A stretch of DNA of 64,000 nucleotides. Origin: an uncultured Clostridia bacterium. GTDB taxonomy: Bacteria; Bacillota; Clostridia; Christensenellales; UBA1242. This document shows, one piece after another, positions 5,371 through 57,527 of the stretch; position 1 is the first letter of the stretch, and every line of letters begins with the position of its first letter. The notes under the pieces are model-generated. The model searched no databases, had not been told where the DNA came from, and saw only the letters and a program-made list of their open reading frames with translations. The stretch lies in NCBI GenBank assembly GCA_944383685.1, contig CALWQM010000011.1, positions 18,970-82,969 of the forward strand, in the 5' to 3' direction. The position numbers and the translations under genes were made by a program.

Positions 5371-5434
5371 TATCAATCTTTAATATTGACAAATGCTACA
5401 AAATATTGTATAATAATTATGTTAAGGAGAGAAA

Positions 5435-6128
5435 AATGAATATTAAAAAATATCTTGAAGAAAGTTTAGTTACCCCAGACCTACTTACAAGTTCTTATTG
5501 TCAATTTGCAATTTATAATGGGGTTGGACCTGTTCCAAAATATGAAGATTCTGTTTATTATGACTCATTCAATCCAGATAGCAAACAAAATAAATATTTA
5601 TATGAAGGCGAAGTAAACGCAAATAAAGGCAAACATCTTTCACTAAGGGAAATGGCTTTTGAAAATTATCTTATGGCAATTAAAAACTTGCTCGGAAACA
5701 ACCCTGATTTAAAAAATCCATTTAAAAAATCATATTATCAAGGACAAATTGACCTTCAAATTGAAACTTTGGTTACACTTGCAAATTCATATATAAACAA
5801 AGATGCTAAAAAAATTAAATACGATGATGTTGAATTTAATAAAATGGCAAAAGTTTATCCAAATCTTGCGAAAATTGAACCATATATGCCAAGCGTAATT
5901 TACTATGTTGCATTAAAACAAGGCTGGGATTTAAAATATCCAAATGAATATTCTTTATCAAGCAATAAACCATTTAGTGGAAAAATTGAAACTCCGCTTA
6001 ATGATGAAGAAATTGAATATAATCCTGCATATAAAGTTAACGACAAAGATATGATTATGAGTATTGGCAGTAGATTTGGCATGAACTACGGAAAATACAC
6101 TAAAAAAGATTTATTTTATTCTTTATAA
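5435..6128 (+). CDS. Uncharacterised protein, paralog family member 1 (230 aa)
   Basis: AAGGAGAG RBS. Perfect TTGACA-17-TATAAT promoter just upstream. Clear similarity to the ORF at 32311-32889. Confidence 0.6.
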
Positions 6129-13200: not shown

Positions 13201-13571
13201 GTCCTTAGAGTTCCATGGTTACTGGTCCCGTCACCTTCATGCCAGTAAGTAGAAAACCTGCCAACATCAAGATACCTTGACCGTATTTGACTATAACTTA
13301 ATTCTTCACCATCAATATTATATGCCACAGCTTGAACACCAAAACTTACACCTTGTGCCGATATCTCGTCTCCATCTTCTTGATTCTCATTATCAAAGTT
13401 ATTGTCAAAATTATCATTGTTTATATCACTTGGATTGCCTTCATTTTCATTGTTCTCTTCATTACCTTCTTGGGAATAAGATTGATTGCAGCCTGCTAAA
13501 AGGAAGGCACTTCCAGTGAGTGCAGTCCCAATAAACAAAAATGAAAATAAAACCAAAAACAACTTTTTCAT
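10218..13571 (-). CDS. Large surface lipoprotein with Listeria-Bacteroides (InlB B-repeat/Flg_new-like) repeats and a DUF6273-like C-terminal domain
   Basis: Signal peptide with lipobox LLAGC, then an Asn/Asp/Glu-rich linker. Repeated GYTFLGWSTSSTATSA.Y motifs. C-terminal YKVEPIRWRL motif. Confidence 0.8.
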   Translation of the reverse strand: MKKLFLVLFSFLFIGTALTGSAFLLAGCNQSYSQEGNEENNENEGNPSDINNDNFDNNFDNENQEDGDEISAQGVSFGVQAVAYNIDGEELSYSQIRSRYLDVGRFSTYWHEGDGTSNHGTLRTWGVTPTRTAAYGYYSAGGTADDTYATNLLYFRYTWTGGPVNRYVEIRLNKTVNWRPIITLEAPFFDDYMLASESSPTYIWGQDNTYPTLSNIDPLSAVSTYFEAEIYVNFLEEIDIIFDTDGGSSMPSETTWARYDYTLPREKPKKEGYTFACWEIEGGVGYSAGLTIPWSELKKIGKTTITMNAVWEPNSYTNRYYYRSSTTPTTRRSQTQTRYYEEDFATLAQSSLSYPFYTTNGWSLYGWRTASTTGTGINFYPGQWIALTTTSTQTFYAIAQRTITLTYHANGGSNVPSSQTTTQYWNMYSTSASLSYMTSVSFSITSSKPTRTGYTFLGWSTSSTATSATYEPGDTYSLGYRSYSSSNSTILFAVWEINDYTNTYYYRSTTSPTTLRSQNQTRTYGQSFSTLTQSSLNYTFYSSNGWSLYGWRTSSTGTSLTYSPNQSVTLTSTSTISLYAIASRTITLDYNVNGGSGSISSQHVTQYWNMSNATVSSSYITSANFTITSSEPTRTGYTFLGWSTSSTATSADYVASATYTIMPGYSSSQNMTLYAVWQVNSYYVDVNMTLNGSGVSNFLGSFDVSANGTVKATNATDFYQQIAYGSTVRVYDIISNAGYTYQSYTINVSGIETSNSNKSNIEIKMPAQAISINLHQVSNVYTMTLDRQGATNGTSAIYMKYGVGWYSNSTATTAITSVPTLPTKAGFTFGGYFTETNGGGTQIVSSSGQITGANNYITANDTVYAKWTANLEAKKDTAGGYYYVEIGNMPQTKVTDSSLISQLNSATTNGGTYYINGTTMVGKVVIYNNQTIEACKNENNWYKVEPIRWRLAYSSSQTSGYGTTTDTFAVMDTIVYAGQYSATEIGLNSGYVTTTLDEFKKNVTSTTYLATFSANVESFSPTGTTSKSQSANMFISSTDEMSNVLNNKTGSAKYSVKFSDLVSDIFGNGIKQYYTRNLGSNTSTIKSYTELGMATQNLCTNLQGIQFSIKVSEYGCV
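11535..12632 (-). repeat. Intragenic tandem duplication (2 x ~183 codons) inside the surface lipoprotein gene
   Basis: Residues ~314-497 (NSYTNRYYYRSSTTPTT...LFAVWEI) and ~498-679 (NDYTNTYYYRSTTSPTT...LYAVWQV) align end to end. Confidence 0.8.
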
Positions 13572-13577
13572 ATTTTG

Positions 13578-13606
13578 ATTTTATCAAATCCCCCCCCCCG
13601 AGTCAA
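13578..13606 (-). promoter_or_regulatory. Sigma-A-type promoter with a G10 tract in its 17-bp spacer; -10 lies 6 nt from the ATG
   Basis: Minus strand reads TTGACT c GGGGGGGGGG atttga TAAAAT caaaat ATG. The C-run on the plus strand is 13590-13599. Confidence 0.6.
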
Positions 13607-16000: not shown

Positions 16001-16236
16001 ATAAAAGTATATGGGAATAAAAATATTAAAGTTACAATAATATTTTTTATTATTTTTTAATTCGCTAAAATAATATTTAAAATCTATTTTTTTAATTAAA
16101 AAACATTTTTTATTATTTTTTCTTTAAATTTTTGCATATTTTTTAATTTTTTTTGATATTTTCTATTTATTTTTTATTTTTTCTTTATTTTTATAATTTT
16201 TTCTTAAATTATTTTCCTTTTAATTAAACATGGTTT

Positions 16237-18699: not shown

Positions 18700-19662
18700 T
18701 TAAACAATAAGATAAACTCCAAGCACAATTAAAGATATAACCGCTGTTATACTTATATATACGATAACAATTCGGTTTTCATGCACACCTTTTTGCTCAA
18801 AATGATGGTGAAGGGGCGCCATCAAGAAAATTCTTTTCCCTTTGGTCTTTTTAAAATATAAAACTTGCAAAATATCCGAAACCGCTGAAAGAACAAACAT
18901 AATCCCCATAATTGGCAATATGAGTTCTAAACCCGTCAAAACTGCAACTGTTCCAATAAAACCGCCAAGTGCAAGCGAACCTGTGTCACCCATGAAAATT
19001 TTTGCAGGAAAACAGTTAAACATCAAAAATCCTAAAAGACCACCACATAAAGAAAATGTAATAATTGCAAGATTTGACATTTCAATAGAATTAAATAATG
19101 TAAGCAAAATTCCAAAAATCAGCAAATACACAAAACTAACTCCACCGGCAAGTCCATCTAACCCATCTGTTAAATTGACACTGTTAGTGGTGGCAATAAG
19201 CACAAGAATAACAAGTGGAATAATGAAAGCCCCTATGTCAAATGTTATTCCAAAAAAATTTAAGCTTGTCCTGCCAGAAAAATAAATATACAAACTGACA
19301 ATTAAGGCAAGTCCAAATTGCCCTATAATTTTTTGATATGGCCTTAACCCCTCGTTGTGGTGATATCTTATTTTTATGAAATCGTCTAAAAACCCAAGCA
19401 GTCCATAGGATAATGTCACTAAAATTAAAAAAATTGATGTAAACCTTTGTTCAGGAAGCAAAAAACATAATCCAACAAGCATGGCAGCCAAGAAAATCAC
19501 ACCGCCCATTGTTGGAGTCCCCTGTTTTCCAGCATGCTTGTCCACATAATGCAAAATAGTTTGAGAAGCCTTCAACTTTTTGCATACAGAAATAACAAGT
19601 GGAGCAAACAGGCATGCAAACAAAAAGGATATCACACCACTTAAAATAAATTTAATTGCCAT
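18700..19662 (-). CDS. mraY: Phospho-N-acetylmuramoyl-pentapeptide transferase
   Basis: KQGTPTMGG, NLTDGLDGLA, MGDTGSLALGG motifs. Confidence 0.95.
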   Translation of the reverse strand: MAIKFILSGVISFLFACLFAPLVISVCKKLKASQTILHYVDKHAGKQGTPTMGGVIFLAAMLVGLCFLLPEQRFTSIFLILVTLSYGLLGFLDDFIKIRYHHNEGLRPYQKIIGQFGLALIVSLYIYFSGRTSLNFFGITFDIGAFIIPLVILVLIATTNSVNLTDGLDGLAGGVSFVYLLIFGILLTLFNSIEMSNLAIITFSLCGGLLGFLMFNCFPAKIFMGDTGSLALGGFIGTVAVLTGLELILPIMGIMFVLSAVSDILQVLYFKKTKGKRIFLMAPLHHHFEQKGVHENRIVIVYISITAVISLIVLGVYLIV

Positions 19663-21118
19663 ATTTCTCCTTTATAGATTTTTCCGTTTCATTTTTAATA
19701 ATTTTATAAATCACATCAAAGTCATTATAATCTAATTTTTTATCACCAACAATTTGATATTTCTCTCCACCCTTTCCAGCAATCACAAGCACATCATCTT
19801 TCTTGGCATAATTCACCATTTTTTCAATTGCCAGCTTCCTATCAGGCTCCACAAAATGAGATTTTTTCATTCCCTTCTCAATATCCTTAATTATATCCAG
19901 CGAATTTTCAAATCTTGGGTTATCATCTGTCAAACAAACATAGTCACAATATTTTTCTGCAATAGTGCCCATTTTATGTCTTTTGTCCTTATCACGATTT
20001 CCACCACATCCAAAAACACAATATAAATTTCCCATGCACAATTCTTTTGCCACACTTAAAACCTTTTCTAAACCATCTGGTGTATGTGCAAAATCTATGA
20101 CAATATTTTTATCTTTAAACTTAATAACATTAAATCTTCCCTCAACAGGGTTAATGTATCTTAAACTTTCCACAGCTTTTTCAAGGTCAATTCCAAGATT
20201 GACACAAACAGAAAGCCCTGCCAGTGTGTTAAGAACATTATACCCACCAATCAAATTAGTATTCACATTATAAATTTCATCCAAAACATTGCAATAAAAA
20301 TCTGTATGTGAAAAATCTCCATTTATGTTGACCGCAAAAACATCCGCTGGATTTTCAAGTCCATAGGATATTGTTGGCAATGTTATTCTTCGCAATAACT
20401 CTCTCCCACTTTCATCATCTGCACATATAACTGCACTTTTCATAGTTTTAGGAACAAACAAGGAAAGTTTACAATTTTTATAATTTTCCATAGAACCAAA
20501 ATAATCCAAATGGTCCTGTGTTATATTTGTTAAAACTCCAACATCAAATGTGATTCCATGGATTCTTTTTTGTGCAATGGCATGTGCTGAAACTTCCATA
20601 ACAACATATTCAACACCACTCTTTTGCATTTGCGAAAATGACTTTTGAAGCACATCAACGTCAGGGGTTGTCATGGAATAATCTTCTGTTTGGCCGTCAA
20701 ATTCAATTCCCATCGTTCCAATTGTTGCAACTTTTTTTCCAGCAAATCTTAAAATCTCGCTTATAACATGTGCACAGGTTGTTTTCCCATTTGTGCCAGT
20801 AATACCGATAATCTTCAACTTCTTTGACGGATTATCATAAAAATTGCAACAACATTCGCCAAAACATTCACGAATATCACTTGCCAAACATAACTTTTCA
20901 ATTGGTAACTTTATTTGACTTACAACAAACTTTGCACCCCTTTCAAGTGCCTCTTTGGAATATTTTAAGGAATTTTCGTAATCCTCACATAGGTTAAAAA
21001 ATATTTCACCATTTGAAATAGTTTTACTTTCTTGACTGAGTCCAACAACTTCTTCATTTAAAAAAGCCGTGTTCAAAATTTTTGTTTTTCCTAAAATATC
21101 TCCAAACCTCATCTCCAA
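19652..21118 (-). CDS. murE: UDP-N-acetylmuramoyl-L-alanyl-D-glutamate--(diamino acid) ligase
   Basis: ITGTNGKTT P-loop and overall Mur ligase pattern. Upstream of mraY. Confidence 0.9.
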   Translation of the reverse strand: MEMRFGDILGKTKILNTAFLNEEVVGLSQESKTISNGEIFFNLCEDYENSLKYSKEALERGAKFVVSQIKLPIEKLCLASDIRECFGECCCNFYDNPSKKLKIIGITGTNGKTTCAHVISEILRFAGKKVATIGTMGIEFDGQTEDYSMTTPDVDVLQKSFSQMQKSGVEYVVMEVSAHAIAQKRIHGITFDVGVLTNITQDHLDYFGSMENYKNCKLSLFVPKTMKSAVICADDESGRELLRRITLPTISYGLENPADVFAVNINGDFSHTDFYCNVLDEIYNVNTNLIGGYNVLNTLAGLSVCVNLGIDLEKAVESLRYINPVEGRFNVIKFKDKNIVIDFAHTPDGLEKVLSVAKELCMGNLYCVFGCGGNRDKDKRHKMGTIAEKYCDYVCLTDDNPRFENSLDIIKDIEKGMKKSHFVEPDRKLAIEKMVNYAKKDDVLVIAGKGGEKYQIVGDKKLDYNDFDVIYKIIKNETEKSIKEKYGN

Positions 21119-23388: not shown

Positions 23389-23533
23389 ATTTTTTCCTTT
23401 CTTTTTTATATATGAAAAATTAATTTTATATGTTAAATAATATTTTTAAAATATTTTTTTAATTTTTTGTTATTTTTTAATATTTTTTCAATAATTTTTA
23501 TTATTTTTTGATATTTTAATTTATTTTTTATAT

Positions 23534-24946
23534 TTATTTATAATTATCCGGCAAATCATTTTCAAATAAAACAATATCATTTGCTTGCAATATTTTTTTC
23601 AATATTTCTTTTTGCTCTTTCCTTGACTTTGCATGATAAACATTTTTCATGTCAAAATTTTCCGCTTTAAGCCCTTCTATAATAGCTTTATAGTTTACTT
23701 CATTCATCACAACAACAATATCACAAACTTTCGCAACAAGCTTTGCAATTTCAAAATTCATATCAAATTGTTTGCCACCAAGTTCAACCATACCTGGTGT
23801 TACCAAAATTTTCTTAGCATGGAACTTACTTAACACATCAAGCGCCTGTTTAAACCCTTCAAAATTACTGTTATAAGAATCATCAATAATGTTAGCATAT
23901 CCCTTAATTAATTCCATTCTGTGAGGTATTGCTTTAAGAAGTGAAATACCTTTTTTTATATCTAACAAATTCACCCCAAGAAGATATGCCAAGGCTGAGG
24001 CTGTGACTATATTATCAACACTCGCTTTTCCCAATAAATTTGTGGAAACTTCAATGCTTTGGCTTTCAATATGCAAGTTGAAATACGTTTTTAAGTTTTT
24101 GAAATTCACATTTGTTGCATAAGCAAAAGAGTTCTCTTCACCTATTAAATATTTTTTCTTTTCACAACGTTCATAAAGTTTTTTGTTTGAATCACTTTTG
24201 GCATTGATAATCATAAAATCTTGCACATTTTCACAAATCTCAAATTTGGTGTTTTCAACATTTTCCAAGGTCTTAAAGGTTTCAATGTGACAATTCCCAA
24301 CTGGGGTGAGAACACCATAATCTGCGCCAACAAGCTTGCAAAGAAATTCTATATCGCCAATATGCCTAGCCCCCATTTCCACAATAAAAAAATCATCTTT
24401 CTCTGTAAGGTTTTCTAGTATCGTTTTGCAAACTCCCATTGGCGTATTGTAACTTTTGGGTGTTGCACAAACTTTAAACTTTTGAGATAAGATTTGAAAC
24501 AAAATGTTTTTTGTGCTTGTTTTACCAAAACTCCCTGTTATTGCAATTTTCTTACACGGCATGGTTTTAAGTTTATTTTTCGCTTTTTTAATATATGAAC
24601 ATATTATCAACTTTTCAGCTGGAAGAATTAGATAATGAGTTATTATCATAAGCACTGGCAAAAATATTATACCCACAAACATAACAATTAAATTTAAATA
24701 ATATTTTGTTAAAAAGTAAAAAATTAATGAAAAAATAATAAAAAATAGCAAAAATTCGCAAAAAATATATCTTTTTATGCGATTTGTTAAAACCAATTTA
24801 TTTTTATCTCCAAAAGCCAAATTGAATTTAAATACTCTTGAAACAAATTTAAGTGGTTTGTAATTTTCAAGTTGATACACTTTGATCAGTGGCAAGCTGA
24901 GCAAAACCATAGCAACCGAATAGAAAAATCCTGCTAAAAAGACCAT
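23534..24946 (-). CDS. murF: Mur ligase, probable MurF, with an N-terminal multi-TM segment
   Basis: ITGSFGKTSTK P-loop plus Mur ligase middle and C domains. Directly upstream of ddl. The first ~110 aa are hydrophobic helices. Confidence 0.75.
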   Translation of the reverse strand: MVFLAGFFYSVAMVLLSLPLIKVYQLENYKPLKFVSRVFKFNLAFGDKNKLVLTNRIKRYIFCEFLLFFIIFSLIFYFLTKYYLNLIVMFVGIIFLPVLMIITHYLILPAEKLIICSYIKKAKNKLKTMPCKKIAITGSFGKTSTKNILFQILSQKFKVCATPKSYNTPMGVCKTILENLTEKDDFFIVEMGARHIGDIEFLCKLVGADYGVLTPVGNCHIETFKTLENVENTKFEICENVQDFMIINAKSDSNKKLYERCEKKKYLIGEENSFAYATNVNFKNLKTYFNLHIESQSIEVSTNLLGKASVDNIVTASALAYLLGVNLLDIKKGISLLKAIPHRMELIKGYANIIDDSYNSNFEGFKQALDVLSKFHAKKILVTPGMVELGGKQFDMNFEIAKLVAKVCDIVVVMNEVNYKAIIEGLKAENFDMKNVYHAKSRKEQKEILKKILQANDIVLFENDLPDNYK

Positions 24947-31985: not shown

Positions 31986-32228
31986 ATGAGAAAAATTAAA
32001 TATGGTTTAAATGAAGTCAAAGAAAAAATTAGAAATCTTAAAGGACAAGAACTTACCATGAGTATAAATAGGGGAAGAAAAAAAATAGACACTGTCACTG
32101 CCACCATAAAAGACATATATCCAAGCGTGTTCACAATTAAGACCACCGATGAAAAACTTCAAACTTTCTCCTACTTTGATGTTCTTTGTGGGGATATTGT
32201 GTTTAGTGGAAGTGGCGAAACTTTATAA
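31986..32228 (+). CDS. veg: Veg family protein
   Basis: 80 aa. G..L.......GR.K.....G.I...YPSVF.I pattern matches B. subtilis Veg. Confidence 0.8.
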   Translation: MRKIKYGLNEVKEKIRNLKGQELTMSINRGRKKIDTVTATIKDIYPSVFTIKTTDEKLQTFSYFDVLCGDIVFSGSGETL

Positions 32229-32258
32229 AGTTATGAAATAAAATTTTAAAAATTTCTA

Positions 32259-32290
32259 TTGACAAAATCCCCCCCCCGATATGATATAAT
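32259..32290 (+). promoter_or_regulatory. Sigma-A-type promoter with a C9 tract in the spacer
   Basis: TTGACA (32259-32264) aaat CCCCCCCCC (32269-32277) gatatga TATAAT (32285-32290). Spacer is 20 nt. TGaTATAAT gives an extended -10. Confidence 0.55.
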
Positions 32291-32310
32291 CTTTTCAAAG
32301 GAGAAAGTTA

Positions 32311-32889
32311 ATGAAAAATTATATCACTTATGAATTAATAAACAGTCCAATAAGAAGATGTGGTGGATATGGAAAAGCTAATGGTTGCACAGAAGAACAA
32401 ACAGCATTTGGAAATTATTTATATGCAATAGAACTTTTGTCCGGAACATACAATCACCCAAACAAGGTTTATGCACAAGGCAAAATTGATATGGCAAAAG
32501 ATGTTCTTGAAGATATCGCACATGCCTGCATAGACAAAGATAACATGAAAGTAAATTTCGATGATAAGACTTTTGCTAAGAATTATGCAACCGGTTATCT
32601 TTTTAGTATTGGCGGACTTATGCCATATGTAATTCAATATGTTGCATTAAAAGATGGGCTTGCCTTTGAATTTAATAATGATAATGGTTACTCACTTAAT
32701 AATGTTGATTTAAAAAAAGTTGAACCTGTAAAAGATGAAGATATGATTAAATCTGTTGTTGTAACACTTAATGTTCAAAGAGCAAAAACTCGCGAAGAAA
32801 ACCCAGAATTAAAATTCAATAAAAATTATCAACCTTTACCACTTAATGACTATATACCAGACGAAAATGCTACAAATAAACAACTTTAA
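32311..32889 (+). CDS. Uncharacterised protein, paralog family member 2 (192 aa)
   Basis: AAGGAGA RBS. Aligns with the 5435-6128 product (AFxNYLxAI, YxQGxID, MPxVIxYVALKxG, YSL blocks). Confidence 0.6.
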   Translation: MKNYITYELINSPIRRCGGYGKANGCTEEQTAFGNYLYAIELLSGTYNHPNKVYAQGKIDMAKDVLEDIAHACIDKDNMKVNFDDKTFAKNYATGYLFSIGGLMPYVIQYVALKDGLAFEFNNDNGYSLNNVDLKKVEPVKDEDMIKSVVVTLNVQRAKTREENPELKFNKNYQPLPLNDYIPDENATNKQL

Positions 32890-32915
32890 AAATAATATAA
32901 TAAATATTAAACATG

Positions 32916-32947
32916 AAAAAAGCAGTTCAAAAATCGAACTGCTTTTT
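32916..32947. terminator. Bidirectional terminator
   Basis: AAAAAAGCAGTTCaaaaatcGAACTGCTTTTT. Confidence 0.7.
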
Positions 32948-32965
32948 ATTTATTTTCAAATCTCT

Positions 32966-56469: not shown

Positions 56470-57345
56470 ATGAAAACAAACAAAGTTGAACAATGCGTTA
56501 TTCTTATGGCAGGAAAAGGAACAAGATTTTTGCCAGCAACCAAAGCCGTTGCAAAGGAACTTTTCCCAATAGGTAACAAACCAATTTTAATGTTTCACTT
56601 GCAAGAAGCATTGAAAAGCGGAATAAAAAGAGTTGCACTTGTTATATCAAAAGAAAAGGAAAGTGTAAAAAATTTTCTTAAACACGATGAAAATCTTGAA
56701 AAAACACTAAAAAATAACGGAAAATTTGAAATTTTAAGCGAATTAAATGAAATTATTGATAATATGGAAATTTCATATATTTACCAAGGCGACCTCAATG
56801 GTTCCGGTGGAGCCGTTTATTCTGTGAAAGAATGGGCAAACGGAAAACCTTTTGTGGTTGTTAATGGTGACGACTTTTGCGAAAGCATTCCAGGACATCC
56901 ACCCGTTATGAAACAAGTGATTGATGCTTATGAAAAAACAGGCAAAATGATTATTGGCGCAAAGGCCTTCCCAATGGAGGTAATTCCACGCTATTCATCC
57001 ATTATTAAACAAAAGGAACTTTTTGACAAATGCTTTGAAATAAGTGGCATTATCGAAAAACCAAAAAATCCACCAACAAACCTTGTTGGGCTTGCAAGAT
57101 ATGTTTTGGATAGTGACATATTTGATGAAATATTAAATTGTCAGCCTGTAAACACAGAATACCGCTTGACTGACGCCATTGATTCATTGGCAAAAAAAGG
57201 AAGAGTTGCATCTTATGAATTTTATGCAAACTACTATGATTGCGGAAACAAACTTGAATATTTAAAATGCTTAGTCAACTTCGGCTTAAAAGATAAAGAA
57301 ATTTGTGAAGATTTTAAAAATTATTTAAAAAATATTAAAAATTAA
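56470..57345 (+). CDS. galU: UTP--glucose-1-phosphate uridylyltransferase
   Basis: MAGKGTRFLPATKAV.KE motif. Confidence 0.9.
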   Translation: MKTNKVEQCVILMAGKGTRFLPATKAVAKELFPIGNKPILMFHLQEALKSGIKRVALVISKEKESVKNFLKHDENLEKTLKNNGKFEILSELNEIIDNMEISYIYQGDLNGSGGAVYSVKEWANGKPFVVVNGDDFCESIPGHPPVMKQVIDAYEKTGKMIIGAKAFPMEVIPRYSSIIKQKELFDKCFEISGIIEKPKNPPTNLVGLARYVLDSDIFDEILNCQPVNTEYRLTDAIDSLAKKGRVASYEFYANYYDCGNKLEYLKCLVNFGLKDKEICEDFKNYLKNIKN

Positions 57346-57527
57346 CAAAAAATAAATAAAAAAATCTAAAAAATATCAAAAAATAAACATTTTATTGTTT
57401 TTTTAATTTTAGAAAATTATTTTAATTTAAATTTTAATAAATAAAAATTAAGCAAATAAAACCGAAATATAAAAATAAATTGAATATTTTACCATTATCT
57501 GCAAACACTATCACTAGGAGGTAGAAA

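Follow-up and report, generated by a model that had tools for sequence, protein, structure and literature searches.

A run of nine cytosines (C9) lies in the spacer of a sigma-A-type promoter upstream of a monocistronic orphan gene, here called gene X, in an uncultured member of the Clostridia, and it probably acts as a slipped-strand contingency tract that modulates this promoter. Runs of this kind exceed chance expectation in the window analyzed, and the tract changes length recurrently within the species and is maintained at orthologous promoters of other species. An effect of tract length on transcription, and retention of the tract by selection for switchability, are suggested by the sequences. 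The stretch of DNA that was analyzed, hereafter the window, comprises 64,000 nt (64 kb) and has a GC content of 32% overall (29–36% across the stretch; the genome of the lineage, ~31%). Its genes include ones for sporulation and division (sigE, spoIIGA, ftsZ, ftsA, and genes for SipL, Veg, SpoIIR, SleB/YpeB-like, and SpoVG proteins). The closest genomes were MAGs of uncultured Clostridia from the guts of animals, Ca. Caccovivens among them, with a best match of 68% protein identity; none was of the same species as the window. The features discussed are listed in Table 1, where L numbers denote contigs.

Table 1. Features of the gene X locus and of the promoters compared with it. Positions refer to the window; the spacer is the distance between the -35 and -10 hexamers.
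Feature	Position	Strand	Spacer (nt)	Remarks
-35 hexamer TTGACA	32259-32264	+		From sequence; TTGAC(A/T) kept at orthologous promoters of all relatives examined
aaat between -35 and tract	32265-32268	+
C9 homopolymer in promoter spacer, putative slipped-strand tract	32269-32277	+		Sequence, chance statistics, alleles in 17 samples
gatatga between tract and -10	32278-32284	+
Consensus -10 TATAAT	32285-32290	+
TATGaTATAAT, consensus -10 with TRTGn/extended -10	32280-32290	+		TATG at 32280-32283, TG at 32282-32283
Overlapping -10-like hexamer TATGAT	32280-32285	+
Shine-Dalgarno AAGGAGA	32298-32304	+		ATG 6 nt further on
Gene X, 192-aa protein without signal peptide, orphan family	32311-32889	+		ORF and profile searches
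veg (PF06257), upstream of and co-oriented with gene X	31986-32228	+
Bidirectional terminator hairpin after gene X	32917-32947
Second tract-bearing promoter	13578-13606	-	17	TTGACT (13606-13601), c, G10 (13599-13590), atttga, TAAAAT (13583-13578)
Paralog promoter	5386-5414	+	17	TTGACA (5386-5391), TATAAT (5409-5414), tract-free
Gene X promoter, window species			20	TTGACA-aaat-C9-gatatga-TATAAT
Orthologous promoter, L025 / L011-13			17	TTGACT-C9-tgctatgt-TATAAT
Orthologous promoter, L026			16	TTGACT-C9-gctatgt-TATAAT
Orthologous promoter, L048-50			17	TTGACT-C8-TC-gctatgt-TATAAT; interrupted, 'locked' form
Orthologous promoter, L051			13	TTGACT-C8-tattt-TATAAT
Orthologous promoter, L031			20	TTGACA-act-C9-gcctatgc-TATAAT; 39% protein identity, still next to veg
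Orthologous promoter, L027			17	TTGACT-TATAAT, tract-free
Orthologous promoter, L063			17	TTGACA-TACAAT, tract-free

The tract was placed by sequence only between the -35 and -10 of the gene X promoter, both hexamers of which are conserved in orthologs. The arrangement described in an earlier sequence-only reading (TTGACA, aaat, C9, gatatga, TATAAT, AAGGAGA, and the ATG at 32311) matches the sequence to the base, and the 20-nt spacer of the window allele between TTGACA and TATAAT and the TGaTATAAT extended -10, both pointed out there, are present. The TATGa of the focal promoter fits the consensus of the Gram-positive TRTGn '-16' motif quoted in PMC6570832. The gap between veg and gene X is 82 nt long. 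No terminator was found in it (no stable hairpin, fold z = -0.69), and transcription from the veg promoter may extend into gene X; at its 3' end, gene X is monocistronic, since a terminator hairpin follows it.

Only two C/G runs longer than 6 nt are present in the window, the C9 tract and the one at 13590-13599, and both are located in promoter spacers, so the earlier claim that the latter is the other run of at least 9 nt was borne out. The expected number of C runs of ≥9 nt per window is 0.012 (iid) to 0.05 (first-order Markov), and that of G runs of the same length is <0.003; a chance origin of the two runs is excluded. Across 206 kb of non-redundant sequence from the lineage, C/G runs of 5, 6, 7, 8, 9, and 10 nt were counted 40, 1, 0, 0, 5, and 1 times, respectively, a clearly bimodal distribution with a mode of 9. 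With nine residues, the tract at 32269-32277 is within the length range associated with hypermutability (G/C tracts of ~8 or more).

The second tract is C10 when read on the plus strand and G10 in the direction of the minus-strand gene downstream, which encodes a 1117-aa lipoprotein with Listeria-Bacteroides repeats (ATG at 13571). Only 6 nt separate the end of the -10 (13578) from this ATG, and no Shine-Dalgarno sequence is present (13569-13606, minus strand); the lipoprotein mRNA started from this promoter would be leaderless or nearly so. The length of the lipoprotein differs among samples of the same species (1025, 1117, and 1142 aa). The two other samples that could be compared, reached via murA, both had G10 and showed no length variation, and an exact look-up of the 1117-aa protein for further G10 alleles gave no record. 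In a related MAG, an in-frame intragenic G9 (Gly-Gly-Gly; L026, 19533-19541) was observed in a gene for a 268-aa multi-pass membrane protein (18872-19678, minus strand), a candidate site of translational phase variation in this lineage. Neither mutS nor mutL was found among the large window ORFs checked, the rest of the genome being outside that scope.

Allele lengths were compared in 17 distinct metagenome samples of the same species, which were retrieved by exact-protein look-ups of gene X and Veg and had flanks 99-100% identical. C9 was the modal allele across the species (13 of 17 samples); C10 was seen in two samples, and C8 and an interrupted form, C-G-C8, in one sample each. Length variation among relatives, the absence of which had been named in advance as evidence against a contingency tract, is therefore present. 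In a 1.1-kb alignment of the 17 sequences, the tract was an indel hotspot that accounted for four of the five indel-bearing sequences; the sole other indel was one single-base deletion, and A8, A7, and T7 runs within these 1.1 kb were invariant in all 17. Repeat number varied more than the flanks did, as measured in consensus contigs, not reads. Since C10 was found on two distinct SNP haplotypes and one haplotype group of four contigs contained four different alleles, tract length has changed recurrently and was not inherited once. A JGI metagenome scan allowing all tract lengths between specific flanks returned two unrelated consensus promoters without poly-C, and the species was not in that collection.

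All alleles were consensus assembly calls, and two of the variants came from low-coverage contigs (L010, 3.8x; L035, 7x). Homopolymers are error-prone, so some of the non-modal alleles could be assembly errors. That the tract as a whole is a sequencing or assembly artefact, such as a two-colour poly-G artefact or a homopolymer miscall, is nevertheless extremely improbable: in 17 samples, which come from several studies and were built with several assemblers, it lies within contigs and between the same unique flanking sequences, the tract-bearing contigs include ones with 39-57x coverage, and independent MAGs of other species have tracts at the orthologous position. As a separate observation, four contigs from different samples and species (L009, L043, L012, and L062) end within ~10 nt of the poly-C tract; such ends fit breaks of the assembly graph at a heterogeneous or poorly covered homopolymer, which is only suggestive.

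At least five other species have C8-C9 in the spacer of the orthologous promoter (spacers of 13, 16, 17, 17, and 20 nt), with different flanks. The orthologs are syntenic, with veg adjoining wherever the contig extends far enough. The TATGnTATAAT element is kept in the orthologs on L025, L026, L048, and L031, and the distant L031 also shares the 15/20 geometry, with TATGCT and TATAAT as the two -10 hexamers. Because the -35 and TATGnTATAAT are conserved amid changing flanks, the hexamers very likely form a working promoter. To judge from the promoters compared, a G/C homopolymer of 8-9 nt is kept in the spacer across deep divergence, where a GC content of ~31% should let the tract decay. More distant, non-syntenic family members (L028-30, L032) had no tract. 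The proposal that the poly-C was inserted into an otherwise consensus promoter fits the tract-free orthologs on L027 and L063. The C9T and C8TC variants look like a C10 'locked' at 17-nt spacing by a C-to-T change, and C-to-T locking is the usual route by which contingency loci become fixed.

In the proposed mechanism, slipped-strand mispairing during replication would cause the gain or loss of C residues, and each such change would shift the -35/-10 distance and the helical phasing, altering promoter strength. Known promoter geometry favours a spacer of 17 ± 1 nt. With C9, the -35 would stand 20 nt from TATAAT and 15 nt from TATGAT, and because it would be out of register with both, the predicted expression state is low. 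This state is probably not zero, as the TRTGn extended -10 can act without a -35 and read-through from veg is possible; for the same reasons, a graded 'volume control' is likelier than a strict ON/OFF switch. This agrees with the low or OFF and perhaps graded state suggested in the sequence-only reading. Losing two or three C (C7, C6), the contraction proposed in the sequence-only reading, would leave 18 or 17 nt to TATAAT and raise expression. Gaining one or two (C10, C11) would give 16 or 17 nt to TATGAT, with a similar rise, so expansion, which that reading did not consider, could also restore register.

Several points speak against a contingency function. C9 dominates, and none of the 17 samples had an allele that places TATAAT 17-18 nt from the -35; if the ON state needs 17 ± 1 nt, nearly all sampled populations would have gene X OFF. 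Switching ON by contraction would take two to three steps and end at C6-C7, a tract of far lower mutability, and the TRTGn extended -10 may render the -35 and its spacing largely irrelevant. Most phase-variable products are surface structures or restriction-modification systems, from which the gene X protein, having no signal peptide, differs. In an alternative that we regard as rather unlikely, the tract is mutable but inconsequential: gene X expression would be set by the -35-independent TRTGn promoter together with veg read-through, and the tract would persist through a mutational bias towards ~9 repeats rather than through selection. The extended -10 is indeed present and conserved, veg is not followed by a terminator, the majority spacers across species (13, 16, 17, 17, and 20 nt) look unconstrained, and the modal length in Campylobacter jejuni has been credited to the mutational pattern and not to selection (PMC3401435). 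On the other hand, a perfect or near-perfect -35 (TTGACA/TTGACT) occurs in every ortholog, which would be unexpected if the -35 were unused, and the tract-free orthologs have spacers of exactly 17 nt. A neutral C9 in a genome of 31% GC should moreover decay, yet it is kept down to 39% protein identity, and runs of 7-8 nt are absent while those of 9-10 nt are enriched.

The constancy of the tract raises a further alternative, namely a fixed cis-element in which ~9 C:G pairs are bound by a regulator or impose a rigid A-like conformation, the length variants being deleterious noise. The length is constantly 9 in the window species, L025, L026, and L031, and in these the tract is 7-8 nt from the -10. 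This reading is nonetheless improbable. The offset of the tract from the -35 is 0, 0, 3, or 4 nt, and, with L048 and L051 included, that from the -10 spans 5 to 9 nt; the second promoter of the window has its tract in the reverse orientation (G10), 1 nt from the -35 and 6 nt from the -10, and a tract of the same length is also found inside a coding sequence. Interrupted versions (C8TC, CGC8) exist, the length is polymorphic with recurrent events, and no protein stands out as a candidate binder. Constancy at 9 nt is also compatible with the hypermutability that the slipped-strand reading requires, because the mode of nine in C. jejuni is attributed to insertion/deletion bias (PMC3401435).

Slippage in promoter repeats has several known forms. 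The porA poly-G promoter tract of Neisseria meningitidis is a case of transcriptional phase variation mediated by simple sequence repeats (SSRs). In the fim2/fim3 promoters of Bordetella pertussis, a C-stretch lies between the BvgA activator site and the -10, and slippage alters the spacing. The vlp genes of Mycoplasma hyorhinis have a poly-A promoter tract in which slippage changes spacing; as they encode surface lipoproteins, the G10 promoter at 13590 is a better match for them than gene X is. Promoter-located poly-C control is known from opc (PMC3960869) and from fetA, with an intergenic C10-14 (PMC5953494). Like the focal locus, opc and fetA of N. meningitidis have a G/C homopolymer in the core promoter, the length of which is polymorphic among isolates. 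In these genes, repeat number alters promoter geometry and expression is graded, the counterpart of which is predicted from sequence at the focal locus. The two systems differ in the host, here a Gram-positive, spore-forming, uncultured Clostridium rather than Neisseria; in the product, which has no signal peptide, whereas those of Neisseria are outer-membrane proteins; in the shorter focal tract (modal length 9 vs 10-14); and in the presence of the TRTGn extended -10. By analogy, the focal tract most likely adds to the known promoter-located G/C contingency tracts, the mechanism itself being known from Neisseria and Campylobacter.

The phase-variable polyG/C tracts of C. jejuni have bimodal lengths and a modal length of nine, the latter being attributed to a length-dependent insertion/deletion bias (PMC3401435). 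Both C. jejuni and the focal lineage are low-GC (~30%) gut organisms with bimodal G/C runs and a mode of nine. As here, C. jejuni tracts occur both within and between genes (PMC3401435; PMC8355987). They are mostly intragenic translational switches in surface-modification genes, whereas two of three tracts in the ~206 kb examined here are in promoter spacers. For Clostridia, the only phase variation that a 2025 review describes is that by invertible promoters (PMC11868660). The invertons of Clostridioides difficile (cwpV, flgB, cmrRST, pdcB) are likewise heritable, reversible, and stochastic promoter switches within the Clostridia; the focal site differs from them in having no convincing flanking inverted repeats, no recombinase, and no alternative orientation in 17 contigs.

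Should the tract function in the proposed way, never-cultured, sporulating commensal gut Clostridia would use slipped-strand contingency switching. SSR-based bet-hedging would then reach a class for which the 2025 review (PMC11868660) describes only inverton switches. More tentatively, and with somewhat less than even confidence, a polyG/C 'phasome' of mode 9 like that of Campylobacter may exist in an uncultured family of spore-forming gut Clostridia close to Ca. Caccovivens, and gene X would then be conditionally costly. The tracts that would belong to it so far are those in the lipoprotein promoter spacer, within the membrane protein gene, and in the gene X promoter spacer across genus-level divergence. 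Under this phasome reading, a switched and strain-variable gene X could be, for example, a target or sensor in phage/host interactions. A functional tract would also flag the orphan family as needing stochastic up/down control, a reason to study what the family does. Homopolymer length at such sites in MAGs would then carry biological state, which 'polishing' would erase.

The gene X protein had no match in Pfam, NCBIfam, PHROGs, or PADLOC, and a PDB sequence-profile search gave nothing credible. Its AF2 model was confident (pLDDT 89, pTM 0.86) and had no fold match in PDB or BFVD, and the modelled fold may be new. Matches to a cytochrome c555 trimer (E 3e-5, 34 residues, 0 stretches passing) and to Cas13-ApeA (2 of 16 members, E 5e-4) were rejected as noise. 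Among 1.84 billion clustered proteins, the family is represented by only 39; the motifs RCGGYG, TAFGNYLYAI, and PYVIxYVALK are conserved in it, and its larger members (327 and 626 aa) contained no Pfam domain. The window also encodes a paralog (230 aa, CDS 5436-6128), 37% identical to gene X over 134 aa (E 1e-16). It had previously been placed at 5435 behind a tract-free TTGACA-17-TATAAT promoter; the paralog and its promoter were confirmed, and the ATG is at 5436 rather than 5435. The paralog is wedged between ftsZ and spoIIGA-sigE on the opposite strand.

Gene X and its poly-C promoter were missing from three samples of the same species (L055, L056, and L059) that are 99% identical at sipL-veg, and no remnant of gene X was detected by BLAST in these samples. 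Gene X is therefore dispensable and occupies a strain-variable slot. The region corresponding to window 32229-32965 is occupied there by a replacement cassette (L055, 6298-10160) of four minus-strand genes, encoding a 654-657-aa LRR-like protein, a 161-aa LOR/Tubby-C-like protein, and proteins of 169 and 145 aa, and a 66-aa plus-strand ORF is also present.

Other types of element were considered at the focal promoter and rejected. For a structured RNA or attenuator in the spacer between veg and gene X, there was no Rfam match at the gathering score, and the fold z was that given above. An inverton was dismissed, as the only inverted repeats present were short (12-14 nt) and AT-rich and all 17 contigs had one orientation; no recombinase was found at the locus, where the neighbours are veg, sipL, spoIIR, and genes for hypothetical proteins. 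A promoter for a sporulation sigma factor was weighed because of the neighbourhood (sipL, spoIIR, sleB/ypeB, and spoVG), and inspection by eye revealed no consensus for sigma-E, F, G, or K, the sigma-A elements being the conserved ones.

A 13-nt inverted repeat (32282-32294 / 32314-32326, 92% complementary) would pair the -10 region with gene X codons 2-6, leaving the Shine-Dalgarno sequence and the ATG inside a 19-nt loop. Only read-through transcripts from veg could fold in this way, and the repeat may be a coincidence, TATAAT being the reverse complement of ATTATA (Asn-Tyr-Ile codons). Elsewhere in the window, phased A/T tract arrays with a period of ~10-11 nt were observed in intergenic regions (16105-16215, 23438-23545, and 57314-57387); such arrays are typical of intrinsically curved DNA upstream of promoters.
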